Positions 20,341 through 41,584 are shown, counted from the first letter of the stretch. The stretch is DNA of 56,549 nucleotides from a virus (IMGVR_UViG_3300032265_000524:1-56549), one strand, 5' to 3'. Notes: generated by a model not told the origin, from the letters alone. Made by a program: numbers and translations.

Positions 20341-23300
20341 ATGGCTGAATTTTATTTAGGTAGAATTAAATTTGTATACCAAGGTAACTGGACAACAGGT
20401 ACATCATACGTAGTTGACGACGTAGTCACTGTAAGCGGAAAAACATACATCTGCGTAGTGAGTCACCAAGCATCTACACTGTTTGTAACTGATCTTAACT
20501 TTGCACCTTCAAAGTGGAGTTTAGTATCAGATGGCCAAAGTTGGAAAAATACTTGGACAACATCAACATACTATAATGCAGGCGACTTAGTAAAGTATTA
20601 TGGTATAGTCTACCAATGTAATGCAGCACACTTCTCTAGCCCATCGGCAAGTGCTTCATCGGTTGCTGTAACATCAGCTAGTGGTGTCAACGGTTTAGCT
20701 ACCCTAACATTTAGCGCACAGTCAAGTGCTCCGTTTGCAGTTGGACAAACTATTACAGTTACCGGCATGCAGCCAAGCGGTTATAATGCTACAGCAGTTG
20801 TTACATCGTGCTCAACAACACAAGTTTCATATGCAAATAGCACAACAGGTGCTGCTACAGTTAACGGTTATGTAAATGCAGTTGGCGGTCTAGAATCTAA
20901 TCAAGCTAATTGGGACACATTTGCAAATGCATTCAACTGGAGAAACAGTTGGGCTGTATCAACATACTATCATGTGGGCGATATTGTTAGTTACGGTGGT
21001 TATGTTTACTACTGTACTACTTCACATAATTCAGCAGCTACAACAACACTAGGTCTTGAAAATAATTCCTCAAATTGGCAAGTGTTTAATGCCGGTATTA
21101 CCTATCTAGGTGCATGGAGTTCAGGTGTACGCTATCGCACAAATGACATTGTTAAACAAGGTGCAGATCTATGGATTTGCGTAAGCCCACACACATCTGG
21201 TGTAGCAATTGATGCCACTGGTACATACTTCCAAACATTCTTAAATGGCCTTGAATTTTTAAATTCGTGGACAAATTCAACTGCATATATCGCAGGTGAT
21301 ATTGTTACCTATGGCGGTTATTCATATGTAGCAACACAAAACAATACTAATCAAATTCCAAGCACAGCTACTTCTTATTGGGTAGTGTACACAACAGGAT
21401 TTAACTTTGTAGGTGATTGGAATAATTCAACATCATACAAAACTGGTAACGTTGTAAGACAATCCGGTTATACATATCTAGCTACTACCGATAGTGCTCC
21501 TATTACACAAACTGTAACGGCAGCTAATACATCAAGTAATAATGCATTTACAGTAACATCTACAACTGGTATCGTGCCAGGTATGAGTGTTAACTTTAGC
21601 TATACACCAGTAAGTGTTACAGCAACAGCAACAACAGCAACAGGTAGCTACATTCTGTTAAGTTCAACAGCCGGCCTGGCAACTGGCATGCCTGTTACAT
21701 TTAGTGGTAGCGGTCTAGTAGGTTCTGGTATCACTAACGGTCAACTGTACTATATTACAGCAATCGCTGGCGCACAAATTGTTGTTAGCTTAAACTTCCA
21801 AGGTTCTCCAATTACATTAACAAGTACAAGTTCAGGTACACGTACTGGTACTGCTGGCGGATATCAAGGCGGCGTATTAGGTACAGCTACATATTATGTA
21901 CAAAGTGTTCCAAGTTCAACAACATTTACTGTTGCTACAACACAAACAGGAACAGCATTAGCCCTGGTAGCTGCTTCTGGCATTATGACTGCTACCGTAG
22001 CAGTACAACCACCAAATGCTTCATACTGGGCAAGATTAAATAACGGTTTCCAATGGACTAACTATCCACAGACATTTGCAGCACCAACAGTTACAACAGT
22101 AACCGGTTCAGGCAGTTCTGCAACATTTTCAGTTATTGCATCAGGAACGGTTTATACAGTTACACTAACTGGCGGCGGCAGCGGATATGCAACAGGTAAT
22201 GTACTTAAGATTGCAGGTACACAAGTTGGCGGACTTAGCCCAGCTAATGATATCTTAATTACAGTTGGTACAACAACTGGTGTTATTACAGCAGGTAACT
22301 TTACATTCACTGGTTTTTCATCAACATGGCAAGCCGGTCAGTCATACAGCCTAGGTGATGTTACATTCTGGGGTGCTAGCAGTTATACTTGTGTACAGTC
22401 ACATGTATCTGCAACAGCTAATCGCCCAGATAGCGATACAACAGCAACATTTTGGAATCTACTTGCTTCAGGTGCTGAGGTTGCAACGCTAACCACACAG
22501 GGCGATACATTCTACTACGGTCCTAACGGTCCTACAAGATTACCTATTGGTACTAACGGTCAAATACTGCGTACAACAAACGGTTATCCAACATGGTCAA
22601 CTTATGGCTTAATTAATAATTTAGTTTATGTTGGTCCTCTAGGTACAGATGCACCGGCTCCAGGATTTGGTCTAAGTATAGACACTCCATGGCAAACTAT
22701 TCGTTATGCTTGCCAACAAATTGAAGCTGGATATCAAAACCCACAGGCTCAGATGCTATTGCAAATGAACAAACAGTTCATGATGCAAGAAGTTGCAAAC
22801 TATGTAACCTATACATACAAAGCATCAGTTACAGGTACAAGCACAGGAGCATTCCTAACATCTAACACTGCTGGTTTAACACTAGGTCAGCCAATTAGAT
22901 TTGCTGATGCACAAAGTTTCTTGGTAACAGGCGTTGCTGTGAGTACAACAACAACTTACTATGTAAAAGCAATTACAAATAATACTAGCTTTACAGTTTC
23001 ATTAACACTTAACGGTGCTGCTCTAAACGCAACTGGTACTGGTACTACAACAGTTAGTTATTATACATCACTAACAAGTGAAATAGCACGTGATGCTGGT
23101 ATTGTTATTGATGCATTTATATTTGATCTAGGCCATGGTGGTACAACTAAGACCACTGCCGCAGCTCTAGCATACTTTACTACTGCCGGTAACTCATTTA
23201 TTAATACAGCAGTACAGGCTCAAGCTAATGTGTTCATTGGCGCACAAAATTATCTAGCAACATTAGTTAGTCTTGTACTAGCCAACACAGCTCCAGGCAG

Positions 23301-26300
23301 TAATTATCAAACATTGAACAGCATTTCAGTAGGTAATCGCGCGATCCAGCAGATCAATGCCAACTATACAGCTGAAGCCAATACAACATCACAGGTACAA
23401 GGTTATATCTCAATTATTACTACAGGCCTAGCAGCCGGTGCTTCTACTGCTATTCCTACAGTGATTAATCCGCAGACAACTATCAGCATTAAGACTGGTA
23501 CATTTAACGAAGTATTACCAGTTAACGTGCCAAGTTTCACAGCATTAGTTGGAGACGAACTACGTTCGACTGTAGTTCAACCAATGGCTGCTGATCCTCA
23601 GTTAGCTACAGTTATTCCTAAGAATTCTGCAGCACTAACACGTATCCAATCATTAATACCAAACTTGATGAGTAATACAACAATTACTCCAACATCTGGT
23701 AACACAACTAGTCAAGTAACTTCACTACCGGCCGCAAGTGCAGGTAGCACAACAGCTATCACAAACTTAAAGGCAGCATACAACACATTGTATGATATTG
23801 TAGCAAGTGGTACTAGCAATACTCCGGTAACTATAATGCCAAGCCCAACAGGTTGGGCTGCTGGGTCATTAACCAACATTGCTTATGCATGTTCAGGTAA
23901 TGCTACTGGTTCAACAGCTGGTTATGCCAACGGTGTTGCACAAATTAAACAAAACTACGCATTCTTAGTTGGTGAGACATTAGGTTGGTTACAAACCACA
24001 TACCCATCAATTTGGTCAGCAGAAGGTCCAACAAATACAGTTAGTGGATATAGAGATATTTCACACATTTTAGATTCTATCGTTTACGATATGACCTATG
24101 GTGGTAATTCAATGAGCGAAAGAGCTGGTAGTTCTTATTACTCATTCTATGCTCTAAATATTCTTGCTAGCGAAAAAGCACCGTTCATTCAAGCAATTCA
24201 ACGTTTACAAACAGTTATTGCTAGTGTTATAACAACAACTTCAGTATCACCTACAAACACTACAGTTGCACAAGTAACTAGTGGTAGTGCAGGTAGTACT
24301 AATGCAGCAACTTACGCTCAAGCATTATTAACTATGGTAATTGATTGGATCAGCAATGGTTCAGCAGATGCAGTAGTAATGCCTTACACTGGTTGGATTA
24401 GCTCTGACCTACAAGCAGCGGTTGCCGCAGTTAACGCACAAATCGCAAACAACAATATCCAATTAGATACACTAGGTTGGGTAACAAAGTATTATCAAAA
24501 TGTACCATTAAGTCAATCACTTACACAACGTGATGCTGGCCTAACCGCAACATATCTAGCATACGACATGGCATTTGGTAGTAACTTTAATGCTATCCAA
24601 TGCGGTCGTGCTTATTGCCGTACTAACACTAGCGATATTGCTCTACGCACTACTGCTGAGTTAGCACCAACACTTGGCGCAATCAACTTCCAATACTACA
24701 AAGTTAAACAGATTGCTGCATCAGGTGCAACAGCACAGATTCAAACAACTATCGATGACATCAATGCATTCTTAGTTGGCGGTGTTGCTCCTCCAGTAAT
24801 TACATGGCCACAACCTGCATTACCTTCTGGTATTACATATCCAGCAGTTGCAGGCTCAAATGTAACAGGTACTGGTACTAGTGCAACATTTAACATTACA
24901 CGTTACAATAACGGTAATGGTACAATTACAACTACTAATGGTACTATTGTAAATGCAGGCGGTAGTGGTTACTCAGTTGGTAATACAATTAAGATTCTTG
25001 GTACACAAATTGGTGGTGCATCACCAAGCAACGATCTAGTATTACGAGTTTCGCAAGCTAATGCTGGCGCAATCGTAGCAGTAACAGAATCAACAGTACA
25101 TGGTGCATTAAGATTATTAGAATCTAACCGTGCATTTATTCTAGCTGAAATTATTGCTTACATTAATGCTAACTATTCAAGCATTACAACAGATCCTAAC
25201 TACACAGTTGCAAAAACACAACGTGACATGGGTTATGTTTTAGACGCTATCCACTACGATTTACTATACGGTGGTAACTGGCAATCACAAGATGCTGGTA
25301 TGGCCTACTACTCAGCATTGTACGGCTCACAAATTACCAGTGGGTTTGGTACAGCATTTGTAGCAACTCTTGGATATGCAAGTACTATTGCACAAAGCAT
25401 TATTACAAACACCGCAGTTGGCAGCCCGTTGCAAGTTACAGTATCACAAGTACTAGCAGGTGCTACACAAACAACTGGTAATTCAGGTATTGCTACAACA
25501 GCAGGTGCATTGTTTACAATCGTAACTAACATTGTTACTAGCGGTTTAACAAACGGCGTTCCAACAAAGACAGTTACAACTATTGCAGGTACTAATACAT
25601 TTACAACTAGTGCAGCGCACGGTCTAAGTATTGGTGACATTGTTATTCCACAAACAACAAGCAACGGTCTAGTATCAACTGTAATTGGTTCTGGTACACA
25701 ATATTTTGTTGCTAGCATACCAGCTAACAATCAATTTACATTATCAGCTAGTTACAATGGCACAACGCTAACATCATTTACAAACGGTACAGGATTAACT
25801 ATTGCTGTTCAAACTATTAATATGCCATACATTGCATGGACAGGTACAACTAATCTTGCAGCCTTCCAAGCAGTTAGTTCAGCTCTAGTAGCTAACTATC
25901 AATCACAAGTAGTAACATTTATTAATACAAACTACTCAGCATTGACATATAACTCAACCTACGCACAACGCGATACTGTTAAAGTTACTCGTGCTGCGAT
26001 GTATGATATGTTGTTAGGTAGTAATTTTGCAAGTATTACAGCAGGTCGTGCTTATAATAGAACACAAGATTATCTAGTTCAAGGCTATGAAAAAACAGCA
26101 ACTGTCGCTGCACTAAATTATCTAATAACATTAGTAGCAAGTACACTAAGCCCATATACCGCCCAAGCTACTTCAGCTACAGGCAGTATTAGTTTAATAA
26201 TTAACTATCTATCATCTGCTAGCAACACAGTAAAACCAGAAGTTAACGGTACTGTAACTTATAACAATAACGTTAATCTGATCAAAGGTGCTGAAATTTT

Positions 26301-29300
26301 ACGTGCTAACATTCCATTCTTAGCAAGTGAAGCAGTTGCTTACTATGCAGCCAACTATGGCGGTACAGTATCAACATTAGCAGCCAGCGGTAATTTAATT
26401 ACAACTAGTGGTAATCATAACTTAAATGTAAATGATCCAGTAAAATTCTCAGGAACAGCAGCCGGTGGTATTGCTATCAATACAATCTATTATGTTGCTA
26501 GTACTCCAAGTAATACAACATTTACAATCACAACTGTTGAGGGATACCTAAATACTAATACTGGTACAACATATCCAGTAGTAACACTTTCAAGTGTTGG
26601 CAGCCCAACATTAACAGTTGCCTACTATCACGATGCAACTCAAACTAGAAGTGATATATCATACTTCTTAAATGCAATCGTGTATGACTTACAATATACA
26701 GGTAACTATAGAAGCTTAAGAGCAGCACAAGTATTATACAACGCTGTAAACGGCTCACAATTAAGCAACATGTGGTTAGTACGTAATGGTTGCGGTGTAA
26801 GAAACATGACCTTAACTGGCCTAAACGGCACGTTAACAGTTGCAAACGCCTATGGAACAAAACGTCCAACAGCAGGTGCGTACACATCATTAGATCCAGG
26901 ATTTGGTCCTTATGACTCAAATGCTTGGGTGTCAAGCCGTTCTACTTATGTACAGAACGTTACTTTGTTTGGTAATGGTTGTACAGGTCTTAAGATCGAC
27001 GGAGCACTACACGCAGGCGGTAACCGTTCTATTGTTGCTAACGACTACACAACAATTATGTCCGACGGTATTGGTGCATGGTGTACAGGTAGCAACGCCT
27101 TGACAGAACTTGTTTCAGTATTCTGTTACTACAGTTACTCTGGTTACTTAGCAGAGCTAGGTGGTAAGATTCGTGCTACTAATGGTAACAGTTCATATGG
27201 TACATACGGTGTTATAGCTGAAGGTGTTGACTCATACGAAGTACCATTGTACGCTAACCTAAATAATCAAGCTAACGGTGCTTATATCACTAACGTTCTA
27301 ACAGACAGTGTAACTCAAGTTCTACGTATGGAATATGAAAACGCTGGTCAAAATTACTCTAACGTACAATACACTATCGGTGGTACAGGCTATAACACTG
27401 TAACAGTTGGTAATGAATTCCGTGACGGTGCAGTATTTGAATCACGTTTAATTGATCTTAATGACGGTAACGGTGTGGGTGGCGCAAACTATCTAGCACA
27501 GGCTAACATTGGTCAAGGCGGCAATACATATAGTATTACAATCGCAGGTACTGACTTACAATTAGCCACAGCATATATTGGTGAACGCATCGTTCTAACA
27601 GCAGGTTCCGGTGTTGGACAAAGTGCATTTATCGTTGCATTTAACAACGGTAGTAAAACAATGCTAGTAGCAAAAGAAGGATTTACAAGTTTAACTGTAA
27701 ACTCTGCAAGTGCAACAACTAATGCCTTTACACTAGCAAGTGGTAATACTAATACATTGTACGCAAATATGCCAATTTGGTTTACTGGTACAGCAATCGG
27801 TGGAGCAAATATCTCTGTAGCTAACCCAGCAACAACCCCAGGTAGTATTCCGTTCTATGTAATTGGTACATCATTAACTCTTAATGGTACAACTTTCCAA
27901 GTTGCGGCATCGAGCGGTAGTACAACTCCAGTGGTATTAAATAATGATTCAGGTACTATGACTGTAGTAGCTGCAGGTTGGGATCATGTAATTCCAGGTA
28001 AGGCAATTGCTTCTGCACTTGACTTAACTAGCCAATATATTATTGAACCAAGACTAACATATTCAGCTCCGGGATACACAGCAACAGCAAGAACATTACC
28101 AAGCTCGCAAGAGTGGACTGCGGTAACATACGCAGCAGGATACTATGTTGCAGTTTCAGGTACTCCATTGGGTTCAAATACAGCAGCTTATTCATCAGAC
28201 GGTAAAAACTGGTCATTAAGTGGTCAATTACCAACATCACAAAACTGGCAATCAGTCACCTACGGAGGCGGCCAAGGTGCAGTAGCAACAGCAGTTGTTG
28301 GTGGCTTAGGCGGTGTAGGTTGTATATTATCATGTACATTAGGTACAGGACTTGCTTCACAACAAGTTGCATCAGTAACAGTAGTTGCTGGCGGTACAGG
28401 CTATTTGACTGCTCCAAGTATTGTGTTTACAAGTGCTAGCGGCACAGGTGCTGTAGCAACATGTACAGTGTTAAATGGTGTAGTTCAAACTGTAACAGTT
28501 ACTTCACCAGGTAGTAGCTATGCTACAGTTCCTACTGTAGTAGCCGCAACAGACAGATTGACCAGTATCATTGTTAACCGTGCAGGTCAAGATTACTGTA
28601 TTGCTCCAAACGTCACAGTTTCAGGTGGTGGTTCAAGTAGTCAAGCCACAGCTCTTGCATCAGTAAGTAACAACGGTCTTTCAACAATTACATTGTTAAC
28701 TGTAGGTTCAGGATACACTAGTACACCTACTGTGACTATCACAGATACTAATGCTAAATTTATTGCAACAGCCAACGGTGTTATCAACACAGCATATCAA
28801 TCACCAACTAATTTATCTGGTACTTGGACATCAGGTGGATCATTACCAGCTACAAGTTTCGTAGCAGTAACCTACGGTACAATTAGTTCAACACCAACAT
28901 GGGTAGCAGTAGGTGGTACAAATTCAGCAGCAAGTTCATCAGATGGATTAAGCTGGATTAGTAAAGTTATTCCTACACTAGCGTTAGGTTCATACGTAAG
29001 CGTGGCATACGGTGCAGGTTATTTTGTAGCAATTTCAAACAGTACAGCAACAGCCTACTCATTAAATGGTAATACATGGACAGTAGGTGGTGCATTACCA
29101 AGCGCACAAAATTGGAATAGTGTAACATTTGGTAACGGACGTTTTGTAGCTGTTTCAGGTACAGGTACAGCAACTGCCTACAGTATTGACTTTGGTCTAA
29201 CATGGACATCATTTGGTGCAGGTCTTCCAAGTGTACAAAACTGGAAAGCTGTTACATACGGCCAAGGAACATTCTTGGCAATCAGTGATGACGTAACTGC

Positions 29301-32300
29301 TCCATTATCTGTATCAAGCGTAAGTCGAGTTGGTGCAGCATCAATTTCAACTGTATCGCGTGTTGGTACAGCGGCTGTAAGCACAGTTGCACGTGTGGGC
29401 AATGCTCCAACATCGACATATCAACGCTATGGTACATTTAACTTCTACTCAACAGCACGTTCAGGTTCAACAGTAACAGTTAATACTGGTACTGCTGTTC
29501 AAACTTCACTAGCTACCGCAGTAGTAACAACAAGTATTGTTGGTTTATCAGGACAGTTTACTATTGCTGTTAGCTCAACATCTGGCATTTACAAAGGCAT
29601 GTTGGTAACCGGTACAGGTATTGGTGCTGGCGCAACAGTTTCAAACTCATGGGACGGATCATCTTCAGTATTATTAACTGTAGCTAACAGTTCAAACCCA
29701 AGTGGTACAGGTACATTTGGTAACAATGCTGTGACAGTTGGTAGTACCGCAGGTATTACTGTAGGTACAAACGTAGCTGGTACAAACGTAAGTGGCACAG
29801 TTTCAGCAGTATACACTTCACCAGGTAACGTGGTAATACTAAGTGCTACTAACGGTGGTACACCAAGTGGTACAGGTACATTCTATACAACTGTCGCACA
29901 CGGATTAACAGTAGGCGGCGTAACAACAACTGCTACAGGTACAATTAATACTAACTATGTAACTGTTGGCAGTGTAGCAGGTCTAATGGTTGGCATGAGT
30001 GTATCAGCAGGTACTGGTTTTGTAATTGGTTCTACAATTACAGCGATCAACGGTTCTACACTAACACTGAGTAGTGCGTTAACAACAAGCCCATCAAGTG
30101 GCTCAGTAACATTTACCTATAACGTAACTGTCGCTAACAGCACAAGTGGCCTAGACACAACCAACGTAGCTATTACTGTAACAACTACATCAGCATTTAC
30201 CTACACACTAGGTAGCGGTACTGTTGCTACAACATATACAACAACTGGTCTAATTACTCCAAGCACAATTACAGCATTTGTAACAACTACAAGTGCTGGG
30301 TTATGGAATACTATAAGCACAACAAGTACAACAGGTACTATTGTTAATAATGTAATCCCAACAGCAATCACCGTAGCAAACACTTCTGGTGTTTACACTG
30401 GTATGGCAGTTAATGATCTATACGGTTCAGCAACACTAACACCAAGTGCTACAAACGCAAGTGGCAACGTAATCACTGTTCCAAGTACAGCAACACTAGT
30501 ACCAGGACAGCCAGTGCAATTTACCAGTACACCTGCAACAAGTATAATAAACGGTAGTGCTAATAGTTCACAAAGTATTTCAATTACCGGCGGGGTACTA
30601 ACAGGTACAGTTGGAACATTGACCTACGCAGCACAGGCTACAATACCTTTTGTTCCAAACGAAACTATTACAATTACTGGTGCAAATCCTCCAACACTAA
30701 ATGCAAACTGGGTAGTTCAATCTGCTACTAAGACTAGTGTGACATTTGCTACAGCATTAAGCAGTGCCGCAGTAACACCAACATTAACTGGTGCTGCCGT
30801 AGGTACACCTGGTGTATTTACAGTAAGTTCTACAACTGGTCTAGTAGTAGGCGAGGCAATTACATTTACAAACGTAATTCAAACTCCGACACTAACAGCA
30901 ACAACTAATGCTTCATTCACCACAACTGGCTCAGGTATTAGTGGATCAACACTGACTATTGGAACTATTACAGGTGGTACAGTAGTTATAGGTGCTGTTA
31001 TTTCAGGCGGAACTATTCCAGCTGGTACATATATTACTGCTAACCTAGCCGGTGGTAGTACTAACGGCTCTACATGGAGTATTAGTAACTGGATTGGGAC
31101 TTCAATACCTACACAAACTACACAGGCAATTAACGGTGCAGTAAACTTAATCACATTGACTAATACTACAGGTATTGTAATTGGTGAGTCATTTATTCCA
31201 ACCACAACTAACGGTGGATTAACTGGTTTATCAACTTACTATGTAACTGAAGTTATTAGTGCATCTAATCAAATTGCAGTCAGCACGAGTTATCTAGGTA
31301 CAGCTAATCAGACATTAACTACTACAACAGGTCGTACAGATGCTACAACATTTGGCAGTATATTTGGCGGCCTGACATCAGGTACAACTTACTATATTGC
31401 AACATTACCAGTTAGCCCAGTAAACAGCATGACTCTAAGTACAAGTGCTTCATTAACACCGACATTTAACGTAACAACTGGTGCTAACGGTTCATGGACT
31501 AGTTCAGCTGGTGCTGTCCTAGCGGCAGGTACTATTGCAACTGGTGCAAACGTTGTTCCATTGGCAAGCACTTCAGGTCTAGTAACTGGTCAATCAGTTT
31601 ACTTTAGTGCTCCAACAACTGCTAGCGGTACAGTGATATCAACTAATTCAACCGGCAACTTAATACAGGTTAATAATACAACCAGTTTGGCAATCGGTAA
31701 GAGTATTACATTTAATGGAACACTAGCCGGTACTAATTTAACAGTTGGTCAACAGTATTTTGTGTTGACAATTCCAACTCCGGGAGCCAACGGTACAATT
31801 ACTGTTGCTAACACACCGGGCGGCACAGCAGTAGTAGTTAATACTATAGCATCATTTGGTACGCCTCCAGGATTTACATCAAGCTATGCAATTTCAGGCA
31901 GCGCATTGAACACCTATAGTTCAGGTACACCAACAGTTGCTGGTTCTGTAGGTAGCAATATTGCTATCAACACACAGGGACTTGGATATGGTGTTGGACA
32001 ACCAGTAACATTTGGCAGTGCGTTTGGTAACGTCACTACAAGTACAACTTACTTTATTCAAAGTTTGAATACAGCAGGTATCAATGGATACATTGCTCCG
32101 GGTACTGCTACATCGTTTACAGGTAGTATTTCAGGTACAACATTGACAGTAACCAGTGTGCCAACAGGTTCTGGTATTACAACAGGTATGGTATTAAGTG
32201 GTGGTACTATTGGTACTAGCGTATATATTGTATCTAACGTATCAGGAACTGGTACAAGTGCTTCAAGTTCATGGACAATTAATACCACAGTATCACAGAC

Positions 32301-35300
32301 ATCAACAACAATTACAGCAACACCAGTGTTACTAACAGTAACCACTGTTGGTAGTGGTACAGTAACTCCTGGTATGTATCTAAGTGGTGGTTCAGTAACT
32401 GCTAATACTATAATTGTTGCTAACAGTTCAGGTAGTGGTGGTACTGGTACATACTTTGTAAACATTAATCAATCTAGAGATAGTGCAGGTACTCCTGGTA
32501 GCTATAATGCAACTGCGATCAGCATTACCACAAGCCAAGGTGGCGGCGGCGCATTAACAGTAGGCCAAGGCGGTACAGGAACTGCTACTATCGCAGGTGC
32601 TGTACAACTAGCATCTATAAACGGACTAGTATCAGGCTCAACAATTACATTTGGTGGCTCAACAGGCGCAAGTGGTATTTCAACAGGTACTACACAGTAC
32701 TACATTGTTGATGTTATTGGTTCAGGTATTCCTGGTGTAATCACAATTTCGTCAACATTTAATGGCGCATATACAAGTATTACAGGTGCTTCATTATCAA
32801 GTGCTACATTTACAGCTGGTGCTCCAGTTCAAATTAGTGTAGCATCAACAGGCTCCTTGGCTACACAAACTATTGCAGTTACATCTACTAGTGGTAATAA
32901 TATTACTACAACTAGTTCAGTAACTGGATTAGGTATTACAGCAGGGCAACCAGTAACATTTGCATCAAGTTTAGGTAACATTATTGCTGGTACAGTTTAC
33001 TATGTATTGACTGCTAGTGGTACAACAATGACTATCAGTCAACAGTCAGGTGGCAGTACATTTGCTGTTGGTACAGGCGGTAGCAATACAGCAAATATAC
33101 AAGGTACTGTACAGCTGGCATCTACAACTGGTCTAACAGTAGGTCAGCCAGTAACATTCAGTGCAGCTTCAATTCCAGGAACTGTAACCGCTACAAATGC
33201 TACAGGTAACTTAATTACTGTTGGCAATACAGCAGCATTGGTAATTGGTCAGGCAATATCGTTTAGCGGTACACTAACAGGCACAGGTATAACAAGCGGA
33301 GTTACATACTACATATTGACTATTCCAACACCAGGTGCTGGTGGTACAATTACAGTCAGCCTTGCATATGGCGGATCAGTTCTACCAGTGTTAACTAATG
33401 CTTCAGTAACAGCTAGTTACTCAGCAGGTGGTCCAGGCTATGTAACACCTAATGCTACTGCTACAAGTTCATCTGGTAATACTGTAACATTGTCAAGTGT
33501 AACAGGCGTATCAATTGGCCAACCAATAACATTTACTGGGGCAGGTCTAGTAGGTAGTTTAATTGTAGGAGGTCAAACATACTACATCCTAAGTATAGCA
33601 AGTACTAATATTACTATAGGCCTCACACAGGGTGGCTCAGCTGTGACATTGGGTAATGCTAGTTCAGGTACACTAACTGCTACAATTGGTGGTAATTTAT
33701 TTGGTAACTTGAATGCTAGTTTATTCTACTATATTACAACAATTTCTGGTAATACTTTAGCAATTAGCCAAACACAAGGTGGCACACCATATGTGCATAT
33801 CTTGGCACAAGGTCTGGCTTCAGGTACAGCAGGTGGTACAGCATTTGGTAATATGCTATCAGGAATTCCATACTATATCACAAGTATAACTGGTAACAAT
33901 CTTACAATTAGTACAACATTTGGCGGAACAACATTTGTTCCAGGTAATGCAGCTGGCGCAGCAACAACTTCTACAGGTGGCCTAACAAATACTGGTATAA
34001 CTCCGAGTACTATTTACTTTGTATTAGCAGTTGCTTCAACAACAACATTTACAGTATGTGCAACACAATATGGTACACTAGCAGTTCCGCTAGTAACAAC
34101 TAACCTAGGAGCTACTTCAGTACTATCGGGAGGTTATTTACCAGCAAACACTACGGTATTCAGCGTTAACTATCAAACAAATACTGTAACATTAAGTGCT
34201 AATCCTATTGCACCAATGTCAACTATATCAATATTCTTCCTACCAATTGTAACAATCGGTAGTACACTAGCAGTTGACGGTACATTTACAATTAATCCTG
34301 TAAGTGCAACAGTGTTTAGTTTAACGACAACAGGTGCTAACGTTGCAGCTGGCACAGCGATCGCTACTGGTCTAGCTACATTTGTAACACCAACATCAAC
34401 TGTTGTTACAAGCGTACCGCACGGATACCTAACAGGTTATACTGTTAATCTTTCAGGTGTTGTAACAAGCGGTCCTACTGGATTTGACCAAACTGGTGTG
34501 TCAATTAACGTAATTAACAGTACATCGTTTACATTTACCAACACAGGTTATGCTTCTTTAGTAGCTACAAGTGCTACAACAGGCACTGTAACTCCAAATA
34601 CACCGTCAGCATTTGCTACAATCACAACTAGTGCTCCACACTACTTTACAACAGGATTGTCAGTAACTGTTTCAGGTGTTTCAACAACTGGCTTTAACGC
34701 CAGCGGAGTAACTGTAACTGTAACTGGTGCTAACACATTTACGTACAGTAATTCAGGTATAAGTGTAGCAACAACAGCAGTTACCGGCGCTTCGGCAAGT
34801 TCAACAAGCAATATTGCTACATTAACAACACAAACAGTACACGGATTGTCAACTGGTAACACAGTAACAATCGTTGGTACAGGTGTTACTGGATTTGACA
34901 TTGCCAATGTAACTATTACAGTTACAAGCACTGTAGCATTTACCTACGCAGATGCAGGTTCAAGTATTGGTGCTACATCAACAACTGGTTTTGTCTACTT
35001 GCCAAGTAACGTGGCAGCAACAAGCCCAGACGGTTTAAACTGGACTTCACGCACATTGCCAAGCGCATCAAGCTGGCGTGCCGTGGCATTTGGTAATCCA
35101 AATAGCAATCCACTATTTGTTGTAGTGTCTGACACACCGGGTACATTTGCAGCCAGTGTGCGTACAGGTGCTACATCACAAGGTCGTGCAAAAGTAATCA
35201 GCGGCGCAATCAGCGAAGTACGTATGATTGAGCCAGGTTCAGGATATCCAAAAGGCACAATTTCAGCAACCTATGCTCCTGTGGTAATGACAGTTAACAG

Positions 35301-36681
35301 TTCAAGTACTACTAACATTACTGTAGCCGCAACAATTACTGGCGTAGTAGCAAATCAACCAGTTACATTTGCAAGCACAGTTGGAACATTGGCAGCTAAT
35401 ACAACATATTATGTTGTTACTGCTAGCGGTACAACACTGACAGTTTCAAACGTAGTTGGCGGTTCTGCACTGTCAGTAGGTACTACAACTAGTTTAAGTG
35501 TATCAGCAACTACACAAAGTATAGTGGTTGTTGACAATACTGAAAACTTAGTGGCAAATCAACCAGTTGAGTTCCAAGGAACACTAACAGGATCTGGTTT
35601 GTTAACAAATACTCAATACTATCCAATTACAGGTAGTATCTCAAGTACAAGTTTTGCAGTGACACTAACTAGTGGAACATTGGCTCCAGTTGGATTGTCA
35701 GCAGCTACATTAAGTGCTACTTACACAGCAGGTCCAATCTTTACTATCACAGACGTTAATAAGACTAGAGCAGCAAGTATCAGAGTTAGAACTGGTAACG
35801 GTGTATTAGGTAACCCAACCTTTACTAACCGTGGTAATAACAATACCACTTCAAGTGCTACTGTAACTGGCGATGGTTTCTCAGATATCTATCAACCAGC
35901 TAACTTTATCAACGTTAATAATATGTTCTCAATCCCAACACCGGGTGCAAACGTAACATTTGCAAGTGTACCAGGCGTATACTACAAACTAGTTACAATT
36001 TCAAACATTCTTGGTGTCGCTGGTAATTATACTGCTACATGGCAGATTAATCCTTCATTGACAACATACTTGGCCCCGGCACACAATGATTTGATTACAA
36101 CAAGATTGAAATACAGTCAAACACGTTTAACAGGTCATGACTTCTTGTACATTGGTACTGGTAACTTTACGCAAACTAACTATCCAAATGTTAATATTGC
36201 TAATGCTATCCAAGCAAATCAACAGTTGTTTAGCGGTGGCGGACGAGTGTTCTTTACAAGTACTGACCAAGATGGTAACTTCAACGTTGGTAACTTGTTT
36301 GCTGTTCAACAGGCAACTGGTACAGCTACAATTAACGCTAGTGCATTTAACTTGTCAGGACTACAATCCTTACAGTTAGGTAACTTAACAGTTGGTACAG
36401 GATCTGCGGTTATTACTAGCTTCAGCTCAGACCCATATTTTACTGCTAACAGTGACAATATTTTACCAACACAGAAAGCTATTAAGACCTTCATCACATC
36501 ACAAATTGGTGGCGGACAATCTAGTTTGAACGTAAATACACTGACAGCTGGTGTTGTGTTTATTGCGGGTAACGTGATAACTACAACAACTGGTGGACAG
36601 ATCCAGGTAAAAGCAAAGATGAACTTTGTAGGCGGTATCGACGGTGCAGCAGTAGCAATGCCGTTCTTTATGCAAAGATAA
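20341..36681 (+). CDS. giant fibre/appendage protein (5446 aa), paralog of 12297..20282 with large nested insertions
   Basis: Uninterrupted 16.3-kb ORF with the same domain order as the 2661-aa protein, expanded by helical RD..YD..GGN repeats and many beta modules. Confidence 0.8.
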   Translation: MAEFYLGRIKFVYQGNWTTGTSYVVDDVVTVSGKTYICVVSHQASTLFVTDLNFAPSKWSLVSDGQSWKNTWTTSTYYNAGDLVKYYGIVYQCNAAHFSSPSASASSVAVTSASGVNGLATLTFSAQSSAPFAVGQTITVTGMQPSGYNATAVVTSCSTTQVSYANSTTGAATVNGYVNAVGGLESNQANWDTFANAFNWRNSWAVSTYYHVGDIVSYGGYVYYCTTSHNSAATTTLGLENNSSNWQVFNAGITYLGAWSSGVRYRTNDIVKQGADLWICVSPHTSGVAIDATGTYFQTFLNGLEFLNSWTNSTAYIAGDIVTYGGYSYVATQNNTNQIPSTATSYWVVYTTGFNFVGDWNNSTSYKTGNVVRQSGYTYLATTDSAPITQTVTAANTSSNNAFTVTSTTGIVPGMSVNFSYTPVSVTATATTATGSYILLSSTAGLATGMPVTFSGSGLVGSGITNGQLYYITAIAGAQIVVSLNFQGSPITLTSTSSGTRTGTAGGYQGGVLGTATYYVQSVPSSTTFTVATTQTGTALALVAASGIMTATVAVQPPNASYWARLNNGFQWTNYPQTFAAPTVTTVTGSGSSATFSVIASGTVYTVTLTGGGSGYATGNVLKIAGTQVGGLSPANDILITVGTTTGVITAGNFTFTGFSSTWQAGQSYSLGDVTFWGASSYTCVQSHVSATANRPDSDTTATFWNLLASGAEVATLTTQGDTFYYGPNGPTRLPIGTNGQILRTTNGYPTWSTYGLINNLVYVGPLGTDAPAPGFGLSIDTPWQTIRYACQQIEAGYQNPQAQMLLQMNKQFMMQEVANYVTYTYKASVTGTSTGAFLTSNTAGLTLGQPIRFADAQSFLVTGVAVSTTTTYYVKAITNNTSFTVSLTLNGAALNATGTGTTTVSYYTSLTSEIARDAGIVIDAFIFDLGHGGTTKTTAAALAYFTTAGNSFINTAVQAQANVFIGAQNYLATLVSLVLANTAPGSNYQTLNSISVGNRAIQQINANYTAEANTTSQVQGYISIITTGLAAGASTAIPTVINPQTTISIKTGTFNEVLPVNVPSFTALVGDELRSTVVQPMAADPQLATVIPKNSAALTRIQSLIPNLMSNTTITPTSGNTTSQVTSLPAASAGSTTAITNLKAAYNTLYDIVASGTSNTPVTIMPSPTGWAAGSLTNIAYACSGNATGSTAGYANGVAQIKQNYAFLVGETLGWLQTTYPSIWSAEGPTNTVSGYRDISHILDSIVYDMTYGGNSMSERAGSSYYSFYALNILASEKAPFIQAIQRLQTVIASVITTTSVSPTNTTVAQVTSGSAGSTNAATYAQALLTMVIDWISNGSADAVVMPYTGWISSDLQAAVAAVNAQIANNNIQLDTLGWVTKYYQNVPLSQSLTQRDAGLTATYLAYDMAFGSNFNAIQCGRAYCRTNTSDIALRTTAELAPTLGAINFQYYKVKQIAASGATAQIQTTIDDINAFLVGGVAPPVITWPQPALPSGITYPAVAGSNVTGTGTSATFNITRYNNGNGTITTTNGTIVNAGGSGYSVGNTIKILGTQIGGASPSNDLVLRVSQANAGAIVAVTESTVHGALRLLESNRAFILAEIIAYINANYSSITTDPNYTVAKTQRDMGYVLDAIHYDLLYGGNWQSQDAGMAYYSALYGSQITSGFGTAFVATLGYASTIAQSIITNTAVGSPLQVTVSQVLAGATQTTGNSGIATTAGALFTIVTNIVTSGLTNGVPTKTVTTIAGTNTFTTSAAHGLSIGDIVIPQTTSNGLVSTVIGSGTQYFVASIPANNQFTLSASYNGTTLTSFTNGTGLTIAVQTINMPYIAWTGTTNLAAFQAVSSALVANYQSQVVTFINTNYSALTYNSTYAQRDTVKVTRAAMYDMLLGSNFASITAGRAYNRTQDYLVQGYEKTATVAALNYLITLVASTLSPYTAQATSATGSISLIINYLSSASNTVKPEVNGTVTYNNNVNLIKGAEILRANIPFLASEAVAYYAANYGGTVSTLAASGNLITTSGNHNLNVNDPVKFSGTAAGGIAINTIYYVASTPSNTTFTITTVEGYLNTNTGTTYPVVTLSSVGSPTLTVAYYHDATQTRSDISYFLNAIVYDLQYTGNYRSLRAAQVLYNAVNGSQLSNMWLVRNGCGVRNMTLTGLNGTLTVANAYGTKRPTAGAYTSLDPGFGPYDSNAWVSSRSTYVQNVTLFGNGCTGLKIDGALHAGGNRSIVANDYTTIMSDGIGAWCTGSNALTELVSVFCYYSYSGYLAELGGKIRATNGNSSYGTYGVIAEGVDSYEVPLYANLNNQANGAYITNVLTDSVTQVLRMEYENAGQNYSNVQYTIGGTGYNTVTVGNEFRDGAVFESRLIDLNDGNGVGGANYLAQANIGQGGNTYSITIAGTDLQLATAYIGERIVLTAGSGVGQSAFIVAFNNGSKTMLVAKEGFTSLTVNSASATTNAFTLASGNTNTLYANMPIWFTGTAIGGANISVANPATTPGSIPFYVIGTSLTLNGTTFQVAASSGSTTPVVLNNDSGTMTVVAAGWDHVIPGKAIASALDLTSQYIIEPRLTYSAPGYTATARTLPSSQEWTAVTYAAGYYVAVSGTPLGSNTAAYSSDGKNWSLSGQLPTSQNWQSVTYGGGQGAVATAVVGGLGGVGCILSCTLGTGLASQQVASVTVVAGGTGYLTAPSIVFTSASGTGAVATCTVLNGVVQTVTVTSPGSSYATVPTVVAATDRLTSIIVNRAGQDYCIAPNVTVSGGGSSSQATALASVSNNGLSTITLLTVGSGYTSTPTVTITDTNAKFIATANGVINTAYQSPTNLSGTWTSGGSLPATSFVAVTYGTISSTPTWVAVGGTNSAASSSDGLSWISKVIPTLALGSYVSVAYGAGYFVAISNSTATAYSLNGNTWTVGGALPSAQNWNSVTFGNGRFVAVSGTGTATAYSIDFGLTWTSFGAGLPSVQNWKAVTYGQGTFLAISDDVTAPLSVSSVSRVGAASISTVSRVGTAAVSTVARVGNAPTSTYQRYGTFNFYSTARSGSTVTVNTGTAVQTSLATAVVTTSIVGLSGQFTIAVSSTSGIYKGMLVTGTGIGAGATVSNSWDGSSSVLLTVANSSNPSGTGTFGNNAVTVGSTAGITVGTNVAGTNVSGTVSAVYTSPGNVVILSATNGGTPSGTGTFYTTVAHGLTVGGVTTTATGTINTNYVTVGSVAGLMVGMSVSAGTGFVIGSTITAINGSTLTLSSALTTSPSSGSVTFTYNVTVANSTSGLDTTNVAITVTTTSAFTYTLGSGTVATTYTTTGLITPSTITAFVTTTSAGLWNTISTTSTTGTIVNNVIPTAITVANTSGVYTGMAVNDLYGSATLTPSATNASGNVITVPSTATLVPGQPVQFTSTPATSIINGSANSSQSISITGGVLTGTVGTLTYAAQATIPFVPNETITITGANPPTLNANWVVQSATKTSVTFATALSSAAVTPTLTGAAVGTPGVFTVSSTTGLVVGEAITFTNVIQTPTLTATTNASFTTTGSGISGSTLTIGTITGGTVVIGAVISGGTIPAGTYITANLAGGSTNGSTWSISNWIGTSIPTQTTQAINGAVNLITLTNTTGIVIGESFIPTTTNGGLTGLSTYYVTEVISASNQIAVSTSYLGTANQTLTTTTGRTDATTFGSIFGGLTSGTTYYIATLPVSPVNSMTLSTSASLTPTFNVTTGANGSWTSSAGAVLAAGTIATGANVVPLASTSGLVTGQSVYFSAPTTASGTVISTNSTGNLIQVNNTTSLAIGKSITFNGTLAGTNLTVGQQYFVLTIPTPGANGTITVANTPGGTAVVVNTIASFGTPPGFTSSYAISGSALNTYSSGTPTVAGSVGSNIAINTQGLGYGVGQPVTFGSAFGNVTTSTTYFIQSLNTAGINGYIAPGTATSFTGSISGTTLTVTSVPTGSGITTGMVLSGGTIGTSVYIVSNVSGTGTSASSSWTINTTVSQTSTTITATPVLLTVTTVGSGTVTPGMYLSGGSVTANTIIVANSSGSGGTGTYFVNINQSRDSAGTPGSYNATAISITTSQGGGGALTVGQGGTGTATIAGAVQLASINGLVSGSTITFGGSTGASGISTGTTQYYIVDVIGSGIPGVITISSTFNGAYTSITGASLSSATFTAGAPVQISVASTGSLATQTIAVTSTSGNNITTTSSVTGLGITAGQPVTFASSLGNIIAGTVYYVLTASGTTMTISQQSGGSTFAVGTGGSNTANIQGTVQLASTTGLTVGQPVTFSAASIPGTVTATNATGNLITVGNTAALVIGQAISFSGTLTGTGITSGVTYYILTIPTPGAGGTITVSLAYGGSVLPVLTNASVTASYSAGGPGYVTPNATATSSSGNTVTLSSVTGVSIGQPITFTGAGLVGSLIVGGQTYYILSIASTNITIGLTQGGSAVTLGNASSGTLTATIGGNLFGNLNASLFYYITTISGNTLAISQTQGGTPYVHILAQGLASGTAGGTAFGNMLSGIPYYITSITGNNLTISTTFGGTTFVPGNAAGAATTSTGGLTNTGITPSTIYFVLAVASTTTFTVCATQYGTLAVPLVTTNLGATSVLSGGYLPANTTVFSVNYQTNTVTLSANPIAPMSTISIFFLPIVTIGSTLAVDGTFTINPVSATVFSLTTTGANVAAGTAIATGLATFVTPTSTVVTSVPHGYLTGYTVNLSGVVTSGPTGFDQTGVSINVINSTSFTFTNTGYASLVATSATTGTVTPNTPSAFATITTSAPHYFTTGLSVTVSGVSTTGFNASGVTVTVTGANTFTYSNSGISVATTAVTGASASSTSNIATLTTQTVHGLSTGNTVTIVGTGVTGFDIANVTITVTSTVAFTYADAGSSIGATSTTGFVYLPSNVAATSPDGLNWTSRTLPSASSWRAVAFGNPNSNPLFVVVSDTPGTFAASVRTGATSQGRAKVISGAISEVRMIEPGSGYPKGTISATYAPVVMTVNSSSTTNITVAATITGVVANQPVTFASTVGTLAANTTYYVVTASGTTLTVSNVVGGSALSVGTTTSLSVSATTQSIVVVDNTENLVANQPVEFQGTLTGSGLLTNTQYYPITGSISSTSFAVTLTSGTLAPVGLSAATLSATYTAGPIFTITDVNKTRAASIRVRTGNGVLGNPTFTNRGNNNTTSSATVTGDGFSDIYQPANFINVNNMFSIPTPGANVTFASVPGVYYKLVTISNILGVAGNYTATWQINPSLTTYLAPAHNDLITTRLKYSQTRLTGHDFLYIGTGNFTQTNYPNVNIANAIQANQQLFSGGGRVFFTSTDQDGNFNVGNLFAVQQATGTATINASAFNLSGLQSLQLGNLTVGTGSAVITSFSSDPYFTANSDNILPTQKAIKTFITSQIGGGQSSLNVNTLTAGVVFIAGNVITTTTGGQIQVKAKMNFVGGIDGAAVAMPFFMQR
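36262..36323 (+). repeat. 62-bp dispersed repeat, copy 2
   Basis: actgaccaagatggtaacttcaacgttggtaacttgtttgctgttcaacaggcaactggtac. Confidence 0.85.
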
Positions 36682-38483: not shown

Positions 38484-39278
38484 ATGGCTACAGTTGGACT
38501 TGGACAATTATTGGTTAACAGCACGAGTTCCGCGGCTCAACAATACAAACAAAACGTATTTGCGATCTATAACGGCTCGGTTAACCCACAGAACGGTGGA
38601 ACATGTTGCTGCTTTATAGTACCCTCTGGTGTTGGTGCATCATGGGTAACGTTTGAGCTGTTCGGTGGTGGTGGTGACGGCCCTGGTGGCTGCTGCTGTA
38701 TGGGTGCCTATAATGGTCCCGGTGGCGGCGCCTACGTTAAAAAGACTTTGCAAACAACAGCTGGTTGTGCCTACATTCTATGTGCAGGCTCATCAGGTTG
38801 CTGTCAAGTCAACTGTTGCGGCACTTGCGGATTCCCTAGTTTCGTAGTATGTGCTGGTAACTCAACAACTGCTGCTTGTGCTACAGGCGGAGCAGGTGGT
38901 TGTGGTCTATGCTGGCACGGTGGTTTCAATAACTGTACTGGTGTTTGCGTAGCAATGTTTACATCAGGATGTTCTAGCAGTTTAGGTGACTTTATTGTTC
39001 CATCTATGCAGAGCACACAAAAAGATTCAAACTATTGTACACAGTATAGCTATACATGGCAAGCTGGTACACCAAAATTAAGTAATAATAGCTGTCATAC
39101 ATTTGATATTTGTACCATTGGTATGGCACACTCAGGCTGTATGATGGTCGGTAGTTACACACCTGTTACACCATGTTCAGGTCCAGGTAGTCCTGGAATT
39201 GCTGGTGAAGGCTGCGGAGGCGGCTGCTGTTGGGGTAGCTGGGGCATGGGCGGCATGGTTGTAGTAACTTGGGGTTAA
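38484..39278 (+). CDS. Cys/Gly-rich adhesin-like protein A
   Basis: VP.G...VTFELFGGGG.G and terminal G.GG.V.VTW glycine-rich-domain signature; 28 Cys in 264 aa by my count, two CCC triplets. Confidence 0.7.
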   Translation: MATVGLGQLLVNSTSSAAQQYKQNVFAIYNGSVNPQNGGTCCCFIVPSGVGASWVTFELFGGGGDGPGGCCCMGAYNGPGGGAYVKKTLQTTAGCAYILCAGSSGCCQVNCCGTCGFPSFVVCAGNSTTAACATGGAGGCGLCWHGGFNNCTGVCVAMFTSGCSSSLGDFIVPSMQSTQKDSNYCTQYSYTWQAGTPKLSNNSCHTFDICTIGMAHSGCMMVGSYTPVTPCSGPGSPGIAGEGCGGGCCWGSWGMGGMVVVTWG

Positions 39279-39296
39279 TAAAAGGAATTAATAAAA

Positions 39297-40013
39297 ATGA
39301 CAAGTAAAAATTTAGCATTAGGAAGTTTAAGTCCAGAGGACGCACAAGCGGCAGCAGAAGCGCATGTTGGTGAAGCTGCGACATCTGAGAGATTTGAACG
39401 TATTACATTTGAATTTGAATACGCTGTACCTGACGAGTACCTAAGTCAGTCAATGTCTAAAGGCTTAAAGGCCAAGTGGACATACAGTGGTCCTAAAACA
39501 CTTTATGTATTTGTTAAACAAGATACACATAAATTAGAGGGAAAATTTCACTATCACGAAGGCGATGACGGTCATCTAATCCCAACACCTCCAGGTGAAG
39601 TTAAAATTGCTATTGATCCAACTAAAGAACCATTAGTTGCTAGTATCATTTATAATGACTTAGACTACGGTACATTGCCTCATACAGAGGAGCCTTTACC
39701 AAACGGTAAAACATATGGTGCTCCAATTCCTACACCTCCAGATCACTGCTATGAAGTAGAAGAAATTGAATGGGATCCAGTAGCTGAGAAATTTAAAACT
39801 CCAACAGTACTAAAAGTCCCACATATGACATGGGACGGAATTAAAGCGTCTCGTAATAATATGCTAAAGTGGTCAGATATGAAAGTACGTACTTGTAACC
39901 CTGCTGAAGTCAAAGCATGGGAAGATTTCCGTAAAGAATTAAGAGATTTACCAAAAGTATGGAAGGATATCGATGCTTGGAAAGTACAACTCCCAGAACA
40001 ACCAAGTGCTTAA
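39297..40013 (+). CDS. tail fibre assembly chaperone-like protein 1
   Basis: C-terminal W..IK..RN.ML..SD...W..FRKELRDLP motif of phage tail assembly chaperones; acidic/Pro-rich N-domain. Confidence 0.7.
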   Translation: MTSKNLALGSLSPEDAQAAAEAHVGEAATSERFERITFEFEYAVPDEYLSQSMSKGLKAKWTYSGPKTLYVFVKQDTHKLEGKFHYHEGDDGHLIPTPPGEVKIAIDPTKEPLVASIIYNDLDYGTLPHTEEPLPNGKTYGAPIPTPPDHCYEVEEIEWDPVAEKFKTPTVLKVPHMTWDGIKASRNNMLKWSDMKVRTCNPAEVKAWEDFRKELRDLPKVWKDIDAWKVQLPEQPSA

Positions 40014-40027
40014 TAGGGTATAACTAA

Positions 40028-40813: not shown

Positions 40814-40826
40814 GGGCAGAATATAA

Positions 40827-41579: not shown

Positions 41580-41584
41580 TTTAA

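Follow-up and report, generated by a model that had tools for sequence, protein, structure and literature searches.

A candidate self-nested stalk of FCCH-like barrels in a propeller-like blade of a giant phage tail-fiber-type protein

A giant fiber gene with one interrupted blade

The DNA analyzed here (IMGVR_UViG_3300032265_000524; the window, 56,549 bases in full) is a virus record with an estimated completeness of 15%. Its gene set is that of a myophage virion module, with genes for the major head protein, tail sheath, tail tube, sheath stabilizer, head-tail adaptor, and baseplate-wedge-like proteins. The tail sheath gene matched phrog_10581 (E = 4.8e-224), and its DNA was weakly similar to 17 jumbo phage records of the Rak2/GAP32/CBB type (66-77% over 4-11% of the gene). 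We focus on the gene at 20341..36681, an open reading frame (ORF) in the ORF list whose translation of 5,446 amino acids (aa; P0001) contains no internal stop, and on a 1,900-aa insert within its product. This gene and all of its features described below are on the plus strand. Both the N-terminal part (E = 7.5e-85) and the C-terminal part (E = 3.6e-42) of the protein matched phrog_9851 ('tail fiber protein'); given these two matches and the virion module around the gene, the protein was assigned to that family. It is a tail-fiber-type protein of a Rak2-like jumbo myophage fragment. Six CBM_5_12 stretches were detected by Pfam at its N terminus.

About seven blade-like repeats of the pattern W..V.YG.G.FVAV...S.DG..W extend from aa ~2590 to ~4960. 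They are 41% identical to the blades of another giant protein (P0006, 6,212 aa), for which a precomputed assignment to PF03736 (EPTP-type) exists, and gave no Pfam match themselves in the family scan. Judged by their sequence, the repeats are propeller-like (EPTP-like). The repeat pattern breaks off after ...WKAVTYGQGTFLAISDD (aa 2967-2984) and resumes 1,900 aa further on at SNVAATSPDGLNWT (aa 4889, nucleotide (nt) 35005). The sixth blade accordingly reads NWKAVTYGQGTFLAISDD and continues, across the gap of 1,900 residues, as SNVAATSPDGLNWTS. Its first half (NWKAVTYGQGTFLAISDD), together with a VTAP linker, occupies aa 2967-2988 (29239..29304), and its second half (SNVAATSPDGLNWTSRTLPSASS) aa 4889-4911 (35005..35073).

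To place this interruption among relatives, the C-terminal domain was searched against IMG/VR, and the blade flanks were projected onto the best 80 of 236 loci. The two halves of the blade were adjacent in 69 of these 80 relatives (projected gap -6 to -2 aa), and the blades of a 2,661-aa paralogue encoded in the window were uninterrupted as well. Because the blade is contiguous in those 69 relatives and in the paralogue, the 1,900-aa segment is a true insertion in a blade loop. A break of this length had been the starting point of the original prediction, a reading made from the DNA sequence, and it was borne out. The 1,900-aa insert itself was present in two of the 80 relatives, both members of the same clade of ~90% identity. 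In nine others, the same loop held different inserts of 309-1,023 aa, made up of small Thr/Ser/Gly-rich modules that resemble the cargo of the 5,446-aa protein; none of the nine contained the 11-aa units or the FCCH-like copies described below. The blade loop is thus a recurrent socket, and the insert with these units and barrels (hereafter the stalk) is confined to one clade.

The carriers of other inserts were L048 (aa 2397-3171), L062 and L064 (aa 2386-3168), L067 (aa 2854-3171), L082 (aa 2612-3186), and L065, L066, L068, and L070 (aa 2058-3084 in L065). The second propeller-like blade of the 5,446-aa protein is also interrupted, by ~165 aa (aa ~2650-2815; window ~28288-28785) with three 'GSGY...P.V' repeats; these weakly matched phrog_460 (head closure Hc2) over aa 2737-2810. 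Searches of the 1,900-aa insert at the DNA and protein level against 50,697 phage records returned no match, the low-complexity filter probably masking Thr/Ser-rich sequence.

Five 11-residue units and five barrel remainders

The insert opens with five tandem 11-aa units of the form xSTxxRxG, termed R1-R5 (aa 2989-3043; 29305..29469), whose sequences are LSVSSVSRVGA, ASISTVSRVGT, AAVSTVARVGN, APTSTYQRYGT, and FNFYSTARSGS. Their Arg-x-Gly elements lie at aa 2996, 3007, 3018, 3029, and 3040, i.e. at a spacing of exactly 11, and three such elements at this spacing occurred in 0 of 2,000 shuffles of the 5,446-aa protein. The five units had been predicted correctly except for their end, which had been put at 29466 and lies at 29469. 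R1-R3 share 6-7 of 11 residues with one another, and R4 and R5 share 2-6 of 11 with the other units. No 33-nt DNA repeat was found over the array by Tandem Repeats Finder, and the units are therefore old copies. All five are kept in each of seven clade sequences (~90% identical overall), with Arg and Gly invariant. The whole insert is nearly uncharged (7 Arg, 3 Lys, 10 Asp, and 4 Glu), and five of its seven Arg lie within R1-R5.

The array is followed by a segment X (aa 3044-3180; 29470..29880), in which the sequence indicates a hairpin piece resembling b1 and two small beta modules of ~55 aa that end in SGTGTF; it matched no Pfam or PHROG family. At its other end, the insert closes with three consecutive copies of a small beta domain, each represented by strands b1-b5: Dc1 (aa 4686-4752; 34396..34596), Dc2 (aa 4753-4820; 34597..34800), and Dc3 (aa 4821-4888; 34801..35004). 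The seed profile described below matched them at E = 2.1e-24, 4.2e-25, and 4e-25, respectively. Two further copies, Di1 and Di2, lie deeper inside and are both split at the same point, directly after the loop between b1 and b2 (HGL loop), in agreement with the earlier claim of two inner remainders that are themselves divided. In Di1, strand b1 with the HGL loop (FYTTVAHGLTVG; aa 3181-3192; 29881..29916), which can be aligned both with the family profile and with the b1 strands of the four other copies, is separated from the remainder b2-b5 (aa 3259-3308; 30115..30264; profile positions 32-82, independent E-value 2.5e-4) by a module of 66 aa (aa 3193-3258; 29917..30114) that corresponds to a gap in the family rows. 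In Di2, strand b1 (TAFVTTTSAGL; aa 3309-3321; 30265..30303) was assigned through its similarity to b1 of the other copies. It is separated from its remainder b2-b5 (aa 4634-4685; 34240..34395), which gave a weak family profile match at positions 44-75 and could be aligned with the other copies, by a cargo of 1,312 aa (aa 3322-4633; 30304..34239). This cargo consists of many small Thr/Ser/Gly-rich beta modules and matched no Pfam or PHROG family.

All five copies can be aligned with each other and with Pfam E1_FCCH (PF16190), which the insert matched by a narrow margin (30.5 bits at a gathering cut-off of 29.5; E = 3.8e-07), best at aa 4760-4801 in Dc2 (profile positions 7-50 of 70). AlphaFold2 modeling of Dc1-Dc3 on a 116-row alignment gave a mean predicted local distance difference test (pLDDT) of 75.2, with low confidence in the flanking strands; the cores of Dc1 (four strands) and Dc2 reached 92-95 and 84-92. 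Dc3 with its flanks (model residues 139-221) superposed on the FCCH domain of human UBA1 (residues 215-295) with Z = 9.6 and a root mean square deviation of 2.1 A over 77 aligned residues. It also resembled the mouse FCCH structure determined by nuclear magnetic resonance (2v31; Z = 7.2), the barrels of the phi92 (4hiz, residues 255-338; Z = 9.4) and K1F endosialidases (3ju4, residues 423-505; Z = 8.7), and tail-tube proteins of T1 and FCWL1 (Z = 7.3-7.5). Foldseek E-values of the fold matches of Dc1-Dc3 were all >0.001, and the closing copies, searched by sequence against PDB chains, gave 0 matches at E <= 10. By Pfam match and by fold, the remainders are FCCH-like. As part of the text of PMC13576161 describes it, FCCH is a six-stranded closed antiparallel barrel found on the outside of tail tubes, so that copies made of b1-b5 would fall one strand short.

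When aa 4625-4888 were used as query in a full HMMER scan, 116 proteins were obtained at E <= 0.001, many of them with phage minor-tail or baseplate-like termini. A seed profile detected 336 barrel stretches, 232 of them near full length, with every one of the 116 proteins represented. A family profile built from the other proteins only still matched Dc1-Dc3 at E = 4e-12 to 1.6e-19, as well as the second half of Di1. The upstream sequence was long enough in 229 copies, and there the region before b1 has the consensus h-S-T-(R/V)-A-R-S-(S/G)-N, with Arg at position -3 in 44% and Arg or Lys within -9..-3 in 70%. The consensus of 122 terminal or single copies, TSIATASRARSSN VATITTAAAHGLSTGDSVTISGV...FTYANTGSDEASTADTGGAVT (TSIATASRARSSN-VATITT...FTYANTG..TADTGGAVT), has four core strands between a first strand (b0) and a last one (b5); both flanking strands are also present in stand-alone one-barrel proteins such as the 90-aa P0063. 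In P0017, b1 of both copies is immediately preceded by VSTVARNGS, and b4 is followed by A-x-G-x-V-x-F-x-P; these come close to R3 (VSTVARVGN) and to the junctions in the insert, respectively. Since an Arg-rich strand precedes b1 in the family and single-domain members have b0 as well as b5, R1-R5 are homologues of the first strand that is missing from the five copies. The proposal that the 11-aa units are first strands of the domain type found downstream was thereby supported.

A b0 matrix made from the first strands of other family proteins was used to score 5,436 windows of the 5,446-aa protein, and R3, R2, and R1 ranked 2, 3, and 5. Within the family, 154 of 169 strong matches to this matrix were followed by a barrel. 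No tandem run of orphan first strands was found among the 116 family proteins. The top matrix score in the 5,446-aa protein (13.9) belonged to RAASIRVRTGN (aa 5136-5153; window ~35758-35800), after which no barrel was detected. An undivided form of the domain is also present in the same protein, namely a contiguous, complete sixth FCCH-like barrel at aa 106-182 (window 20656-20886; profile positions 3-78, E = 1.4e-10), which sits among the N-terminal CBM_5_12 repeats. A one-level nesting within the same barrel family occurs in P0082, a minor-tail-type protein unrelated to the fiber (aa 392-520): between the b0-b1 pair of one barrel (KQRSSNVATITT) and its remaining strands lies a complete second barrel.

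In front of the five barrels in the insert, an R-type strand was found in none; the element that precedes a copy is the last strand of the copy before it. Elements after b4 read G-h-x-h-x-P in four of the five copies, and the junctions include TTGTVTP, TTGLITP, and TTGFVYLP. Di1 is preceded only by GGTPSGTGTF, which offers no candidate first strand. Five R units and, later, five remainders without b0 are enclosed between the halves of one blade, and this balance of 5 + 5 is the same in all seven clade sequences. Four of the five copies have Asp at one position of the b2-b3 loop (G-F/L-D or V-D-G), where the family has Asn in 173 and Asp in 37 of 229 copies. From the sequences, a pairing of this Asp with the Arg of b0 across both limbs of the insert is possible; in the family, such a pairing is weak, with Asp in 21 of 100 copies that have Arg at -3 vs 16 of 129 that do not.

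Pairing of strands and barrels

On balance, we think that the insert is probably a single-chain, out-and-back, recursively nested branched stalk on a propeller-like domain of the virion fiber, a reading that draws mainly on homology and counting and weakly on structure prediction. In this arrangement, the chain would emerge from the blade loop and run outward as five 11-residue strands in succession (R1-R5), build the small tip X, and return through the five FCCH-like beta-barrels Di1, Di2, Dc1, Dc2, and Dc3. Each returning barrel, itself contributing b1-b5 of the six-stranded fold, would receive its b0 from the outgoing chain, with the pairs R5-Di1, R4-Di2, R3-Dc1, R2-Dc2, and R1-Dc3 formed in the manner of brackets. 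Strand donation in bracket order would place each barrel within the b0-b1 hairpin of the next more proximal one, and the outermost barrel in the blade loop. With b0 running 'up' and b1 and b5 'down', a copy in the b0-b1 hairpin of another would enter and leave at its own base, so that repeated hairpin insertion would produce an outgoing limb of b0 strands only and a returning limb of b1-b5 sets. We estimate that 11 extended residues per level approximate the height of a small barrel. The inserts of 66 and 1,312 aa in the HGL loops would project sideways from the two distal barrels and turn the stalk into a branched arm. Such an arm would display small beta modules totaling ~1,500 aa; binding to the host surface is their presumed role, a natural guess because CBMs occur in the fiber, the endosialidase barrel has a sugar site, and the cargo of the socket varies among relatives.

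Association of the two limbs was assessed by complex prediction (ESMFold2) of R1-R3 (aa 2983-3025) with Dc1-Dc3 (aa 4668-4890), the junctions being included to compete for the first-strand slot. Values of the interaction prediction score from aligned errors (ipSAE) were 0.44, 0.52, and 0.50, and the best of three controls gave 0.00, which was classified as 'weak support'. Contact agreement between runs was at least 91%, and the pLDDT of the partner was 70-76. Barrel pLDDT was 83-85 beside the R peptide vs 62 and 53 beside unrelated partners, a difference that fits completion of the fold but is no controlled measure. These predictions lend weak support to a physical completion of the barrels by the R units, and as they used separate chains, pairing in cis and in trans is indistinguishable in them. 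In AlphaFold2 models of Dc1-Dc3 alone, the four-strand cores were confident (block means 84-95) and the junction strands low (48-57, 50, and 34-50); Dc1-Dc3 are thus not confidently complete on their own. No first strand was made from the proline-bearing junctions before Dc1 and Dc2.

Several observations weigh against the nested stalk. In the matrix scan, R4 and R5 were outside the top 25 b0 scores, and shuffles attained single-window scores as high as those observed (top-1 mean 10.0, maximum 16.9). With seven strand residues and an R-x-G-x turn per unit, the array could also form a local beta-meander. On the side of the barrels, the Dc2-Dc3 junction VTGASASSTSN resembles a weak first strand (b0 matrix score 7.7), so that the claim that the closing copies lack this strand holds for the R type and is less clear at this junction. 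Moreover, the family profile places the junctions before both Dc2 and Dc3 on b0 columns; scoring the junctions as b0 or b5 with sub-profiles was non-discriminating (ranks 330-3,019 and 444-952 of 5,436 windows). AlphaFold2 closed Dc3 in cis, with the Dc2-Dc3 junction (model residues 150-153) as first strand, and it was this six-strand version that superposed on the FCCH domain of UBA1. In some arrays of the family, there is one junction strand for each copy, either of the R type (P0007) or of a GGGTAT type (P0009, P0093), and copies without separate b0 and b5 are therefore a normal form. As to the complex prediction, calibration of the tool showed that 58 of 80 solved complexes and 2 of 110 mismatched pairs attained the mark applied; just 7 of the 80 solved complexes scored <=0.60, as did both of the mismatches that passed. 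By the tool's own account, a verdict of 'weak support' will be wrong more often than not if the guess was not already a likely one.

The prediction, furthermore, bears on association only, and the bracket order of R1-R5 is something we infer. R1-R3 are much alike, and so are Dc1-Dc3; among 120 permutations, the bracket mapping ranked 11 by BLOSUM and 30 by identity, which weakly favors the grouping of R1-R3 with Dc1-Dc3. For the distal part of the stalk, an AlphaFold2 model of aa 3011-3325 (R3-R5, X, and Di1) from five rows of ~90% identity was uninformative (mean pLDDT 33.7). A MAFFT alignment for this same part was discarded because it matched GGTPSGTG to the first strand of the family and the inserted module to b2. 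Nesting also did not vary in depth. The stalk occurred in two of the best 80 C-terminal relatives, both 5 + 5, and a comparison of homologues, which had been suggested as a check, gave no support to the counting rule: no whole-level differences were seen among the carriers, which lowers the support for the architecture without contradicting it. A scan of viral contigs with a query of blade plus R units detected two loci only, both of the same clade. No relative was obtained from 595 pattern matches in a metagenome scan, and no match at E <= 10 from 479 candidates among proteins of 119-2,000 aa. Regular-expression matches of 'R.G' near 'HGL' in L031, L043, L059, and others fell in unrelated helical or other regions and were rejected. 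The idea of modules set one inside the other stands as far as the inner splits, the 5:5 balance, and the placement of the insert in a blade loop are concerned, and is not firm with regard to a physical, last-in-first-out completion.

The main alternative is an ordinary head-to-tail array of barrels, in which the strand at each junction is the first strand of the next copy, the 11-aa repeat folds locally or acts as a spacer, and the 5:5 balance is coincidental. We consider this unlikely, although it keeps an appreciable chance of being correct because of the cis closure of Dc3 by AlphaFold2 and the family arrays with single junction strands. The b0 columns at the junctions before Dc2 and Dc3 and the weak complex score would agree with it, as would the 7 + 4 residue rhythm with Gly in the turn, which suits hairpins. 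It fits less well with Di1, which is preceded by no candidate first strand, with the AlphaFold2 models, in which the proline-bearing junctions ahead of Dc1 and Dc2 did not form one, and with the G-h-x-h-x-P elements, which in four of five copies are like the last strand of P0017 and P0025, where a separate R-type b0 follows. Furthermore, the insert has to begin and end at a single blade loop, which a linear run of five barrels would leave unexplained. The b0 wording of the R units, their number of exactly five, and the complex score of 0.50, with controls at 0.00, also speak against it.

Two other alternatives appear far less probable. Phage fibers are commonly oligomers, and the R units might complete barrels of a neighboring copy, so that the arm would be cross-braced by strand exchange between chains. 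The complex prediction with separate chains is compatible with such trans pairing; yet nothing in the sequence demands it, and the 5:5 balance and the common loop of entry and exit are fully satisfied within one chain, so that we give it a slim chance. Slimmer still is the chance that the R units are an unstructured linker derived from duplicated first strands, i.e. a flexible tether, and that the barrels are self-sufficient five-stranded variants. Confident AlphaFold2 cores made without any R strand and the existence of family copies with fewer flanking strands would be in line with a tether. The invariant Arg and Gly of all five units across the seven clade sequences, the pLDDT of 70-76 and the contact agreement of the R partner in the complex runs, and the presence of five unpaired Arg in an otherwise nearly uncharged insert argue against it.

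If the nested stalk is correct, its evolutionary route could equally have consisted of paired tandem duplications of a strand unit and a remainder unit instead of successive insertion. A more specific proposal, which may as easily fail as hold, is that side arms of the fiber are lengthened like a zipper, by 11-residue strands threaded one each into the five returning FCCH-like barrels. The product would be a stiff, double-limbed rod made from one polypeptide, with an estimated length of ~15-18 nm (from 5 x 11 extended residues), in which barrel loops would serve as sockets for large binding modules. It would grow by paired duplication of the 33-nt strand unit and a remainder unit of ~200 nt. 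With one strand set against five, its split would be the most asymmetric known for a self-nested domain.

Known systems and neighboring genes

The closest parallel is Si3 of the cyanobacterial RNA polymerase beta' subunit (RpoC2), where, as proposed for the insert, one small beta domain (SBHM/HABAS) is self-inserted over several levels in a loop of its host, with the first parts in series, the closing parts in reverse order, and an elongated arm as the result. According to the portion of PMC13114784 that concerns it, RpoC2 of Prochlorococcus contains eight domains in a six-level recursive arrangement; in part of PMC10895346, the Si3 arm is given as 150 A by crystallography, with SBHM-2 to -5 assembled from distant parts of the chain. 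The two systems differ in their domains and hosts, i.e. SBHM/HABAS domains in a trigger loop for Si3 and FCCH-like copies in a propeller-like blade of a virion fiber for the insert. Unlike in Si3, the opening part in the insert would be a single 11-aa strand in a strict tandem array, so that the outgoing limb is visible as a repeat, and large branches would arise on distal levels. The pairing in Si3 has been solved, whereas that in the insert is predicted, and weakly so. No SBHM family was detected in the insert by Pfam at E <= 0.01, and no RNA polymerase chain was among the fold matches listed. A published self-nested barrel stalk in a phage fiber was not found among the papers listed in literature searches, the supplementary tables of PMC13114784 lying outside their scope. 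Self-nesting recursion is thus already published for Si3; the proposed nesting of FCCH-like barrels in a fiber blade, with a split of one vs five strands, differs from it.

The barrels of the insert share fold and sequence family with the FCCH domain of E1 enzymes (PF16190) and with the barrels that decorate siphophage tail tubes. In E1 enzymes (Uba1), the FCCH domain is itself present as an insertion, and its two ends are adjacent. Known FCCH copies are contiguous, whereas in the insert the first strand would be 137 to ~1,800 residues away from the rest and five copies would be stacked. Tandem arrays of FCCH-like barrels in minor tail, baseplate, and fiber proteins (P0007, P0008, P0013, and P0017; 2-6 copies) belong to the same barrel family at 31-46% identity and differ from the insert in that the first strand directly precedes b1. 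The endosialidase tailspikes of K1F and phi92 are, like the 5,446-aa protein, phage adsorption proteins that combine an FCCH-like barrel with a beta-propeller, and the original endosialidase structure paper reportedly describes the barrel as inserted into the propeller. They have one barrel, no recursion, and a sialidase propeller, and no sialidase family was detected by Pfam in the 5,446-aa protein. In the part of a recent preprint that deals with K1F, the barrel holds a sialic-acid binding site (bioRxiv 10.1101/2025.10.06.680778).

Should the pairing be true, one chain would form a long, stiff, branched projection from a loop without oligomerization, and would do so by reusing a domain already known as an 'insertable' barrel. 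Recursion of the kind published for Si3 would then be known from virus particles too, and from a second domain family unrelated to the first, with an extreme split of one strand vs five. The pairing would also explain how the giant fibers of jumbo phages gain or swap modules for host binding at one fixed socket. The rule suggested by the sequence, balanced counts of orphan first strands and of barrels lacking that strand, might help to parse further giant virion proteins that lack annotation, and the stalk could provide a natural template for rigid single-chain display scaffolds.

Further genes in the window accompany the giant fiber gene. The paralogue of 2,661 aa is encoded at 12297-20282 (+) and shares the N-terminal CBM_5_12 repeats, the phrog_9851 match, and the propeller-like blades, the large blade inserts being absent. 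Directly downstream of the giant fiber gene, at 38484-42523 (+), five successive genes encode proteins of 238-312 aa that match phrog_4205 and phrog_9740 in alternation, the last of them with an additional weak 'tail fiber assembly' match. A gene for a 606-aa Nol-like carbamoyltransferase (phrog_1601, E = 9.1e-171) lies on the opposite strand at 42578-44398 (-), within the virion module.

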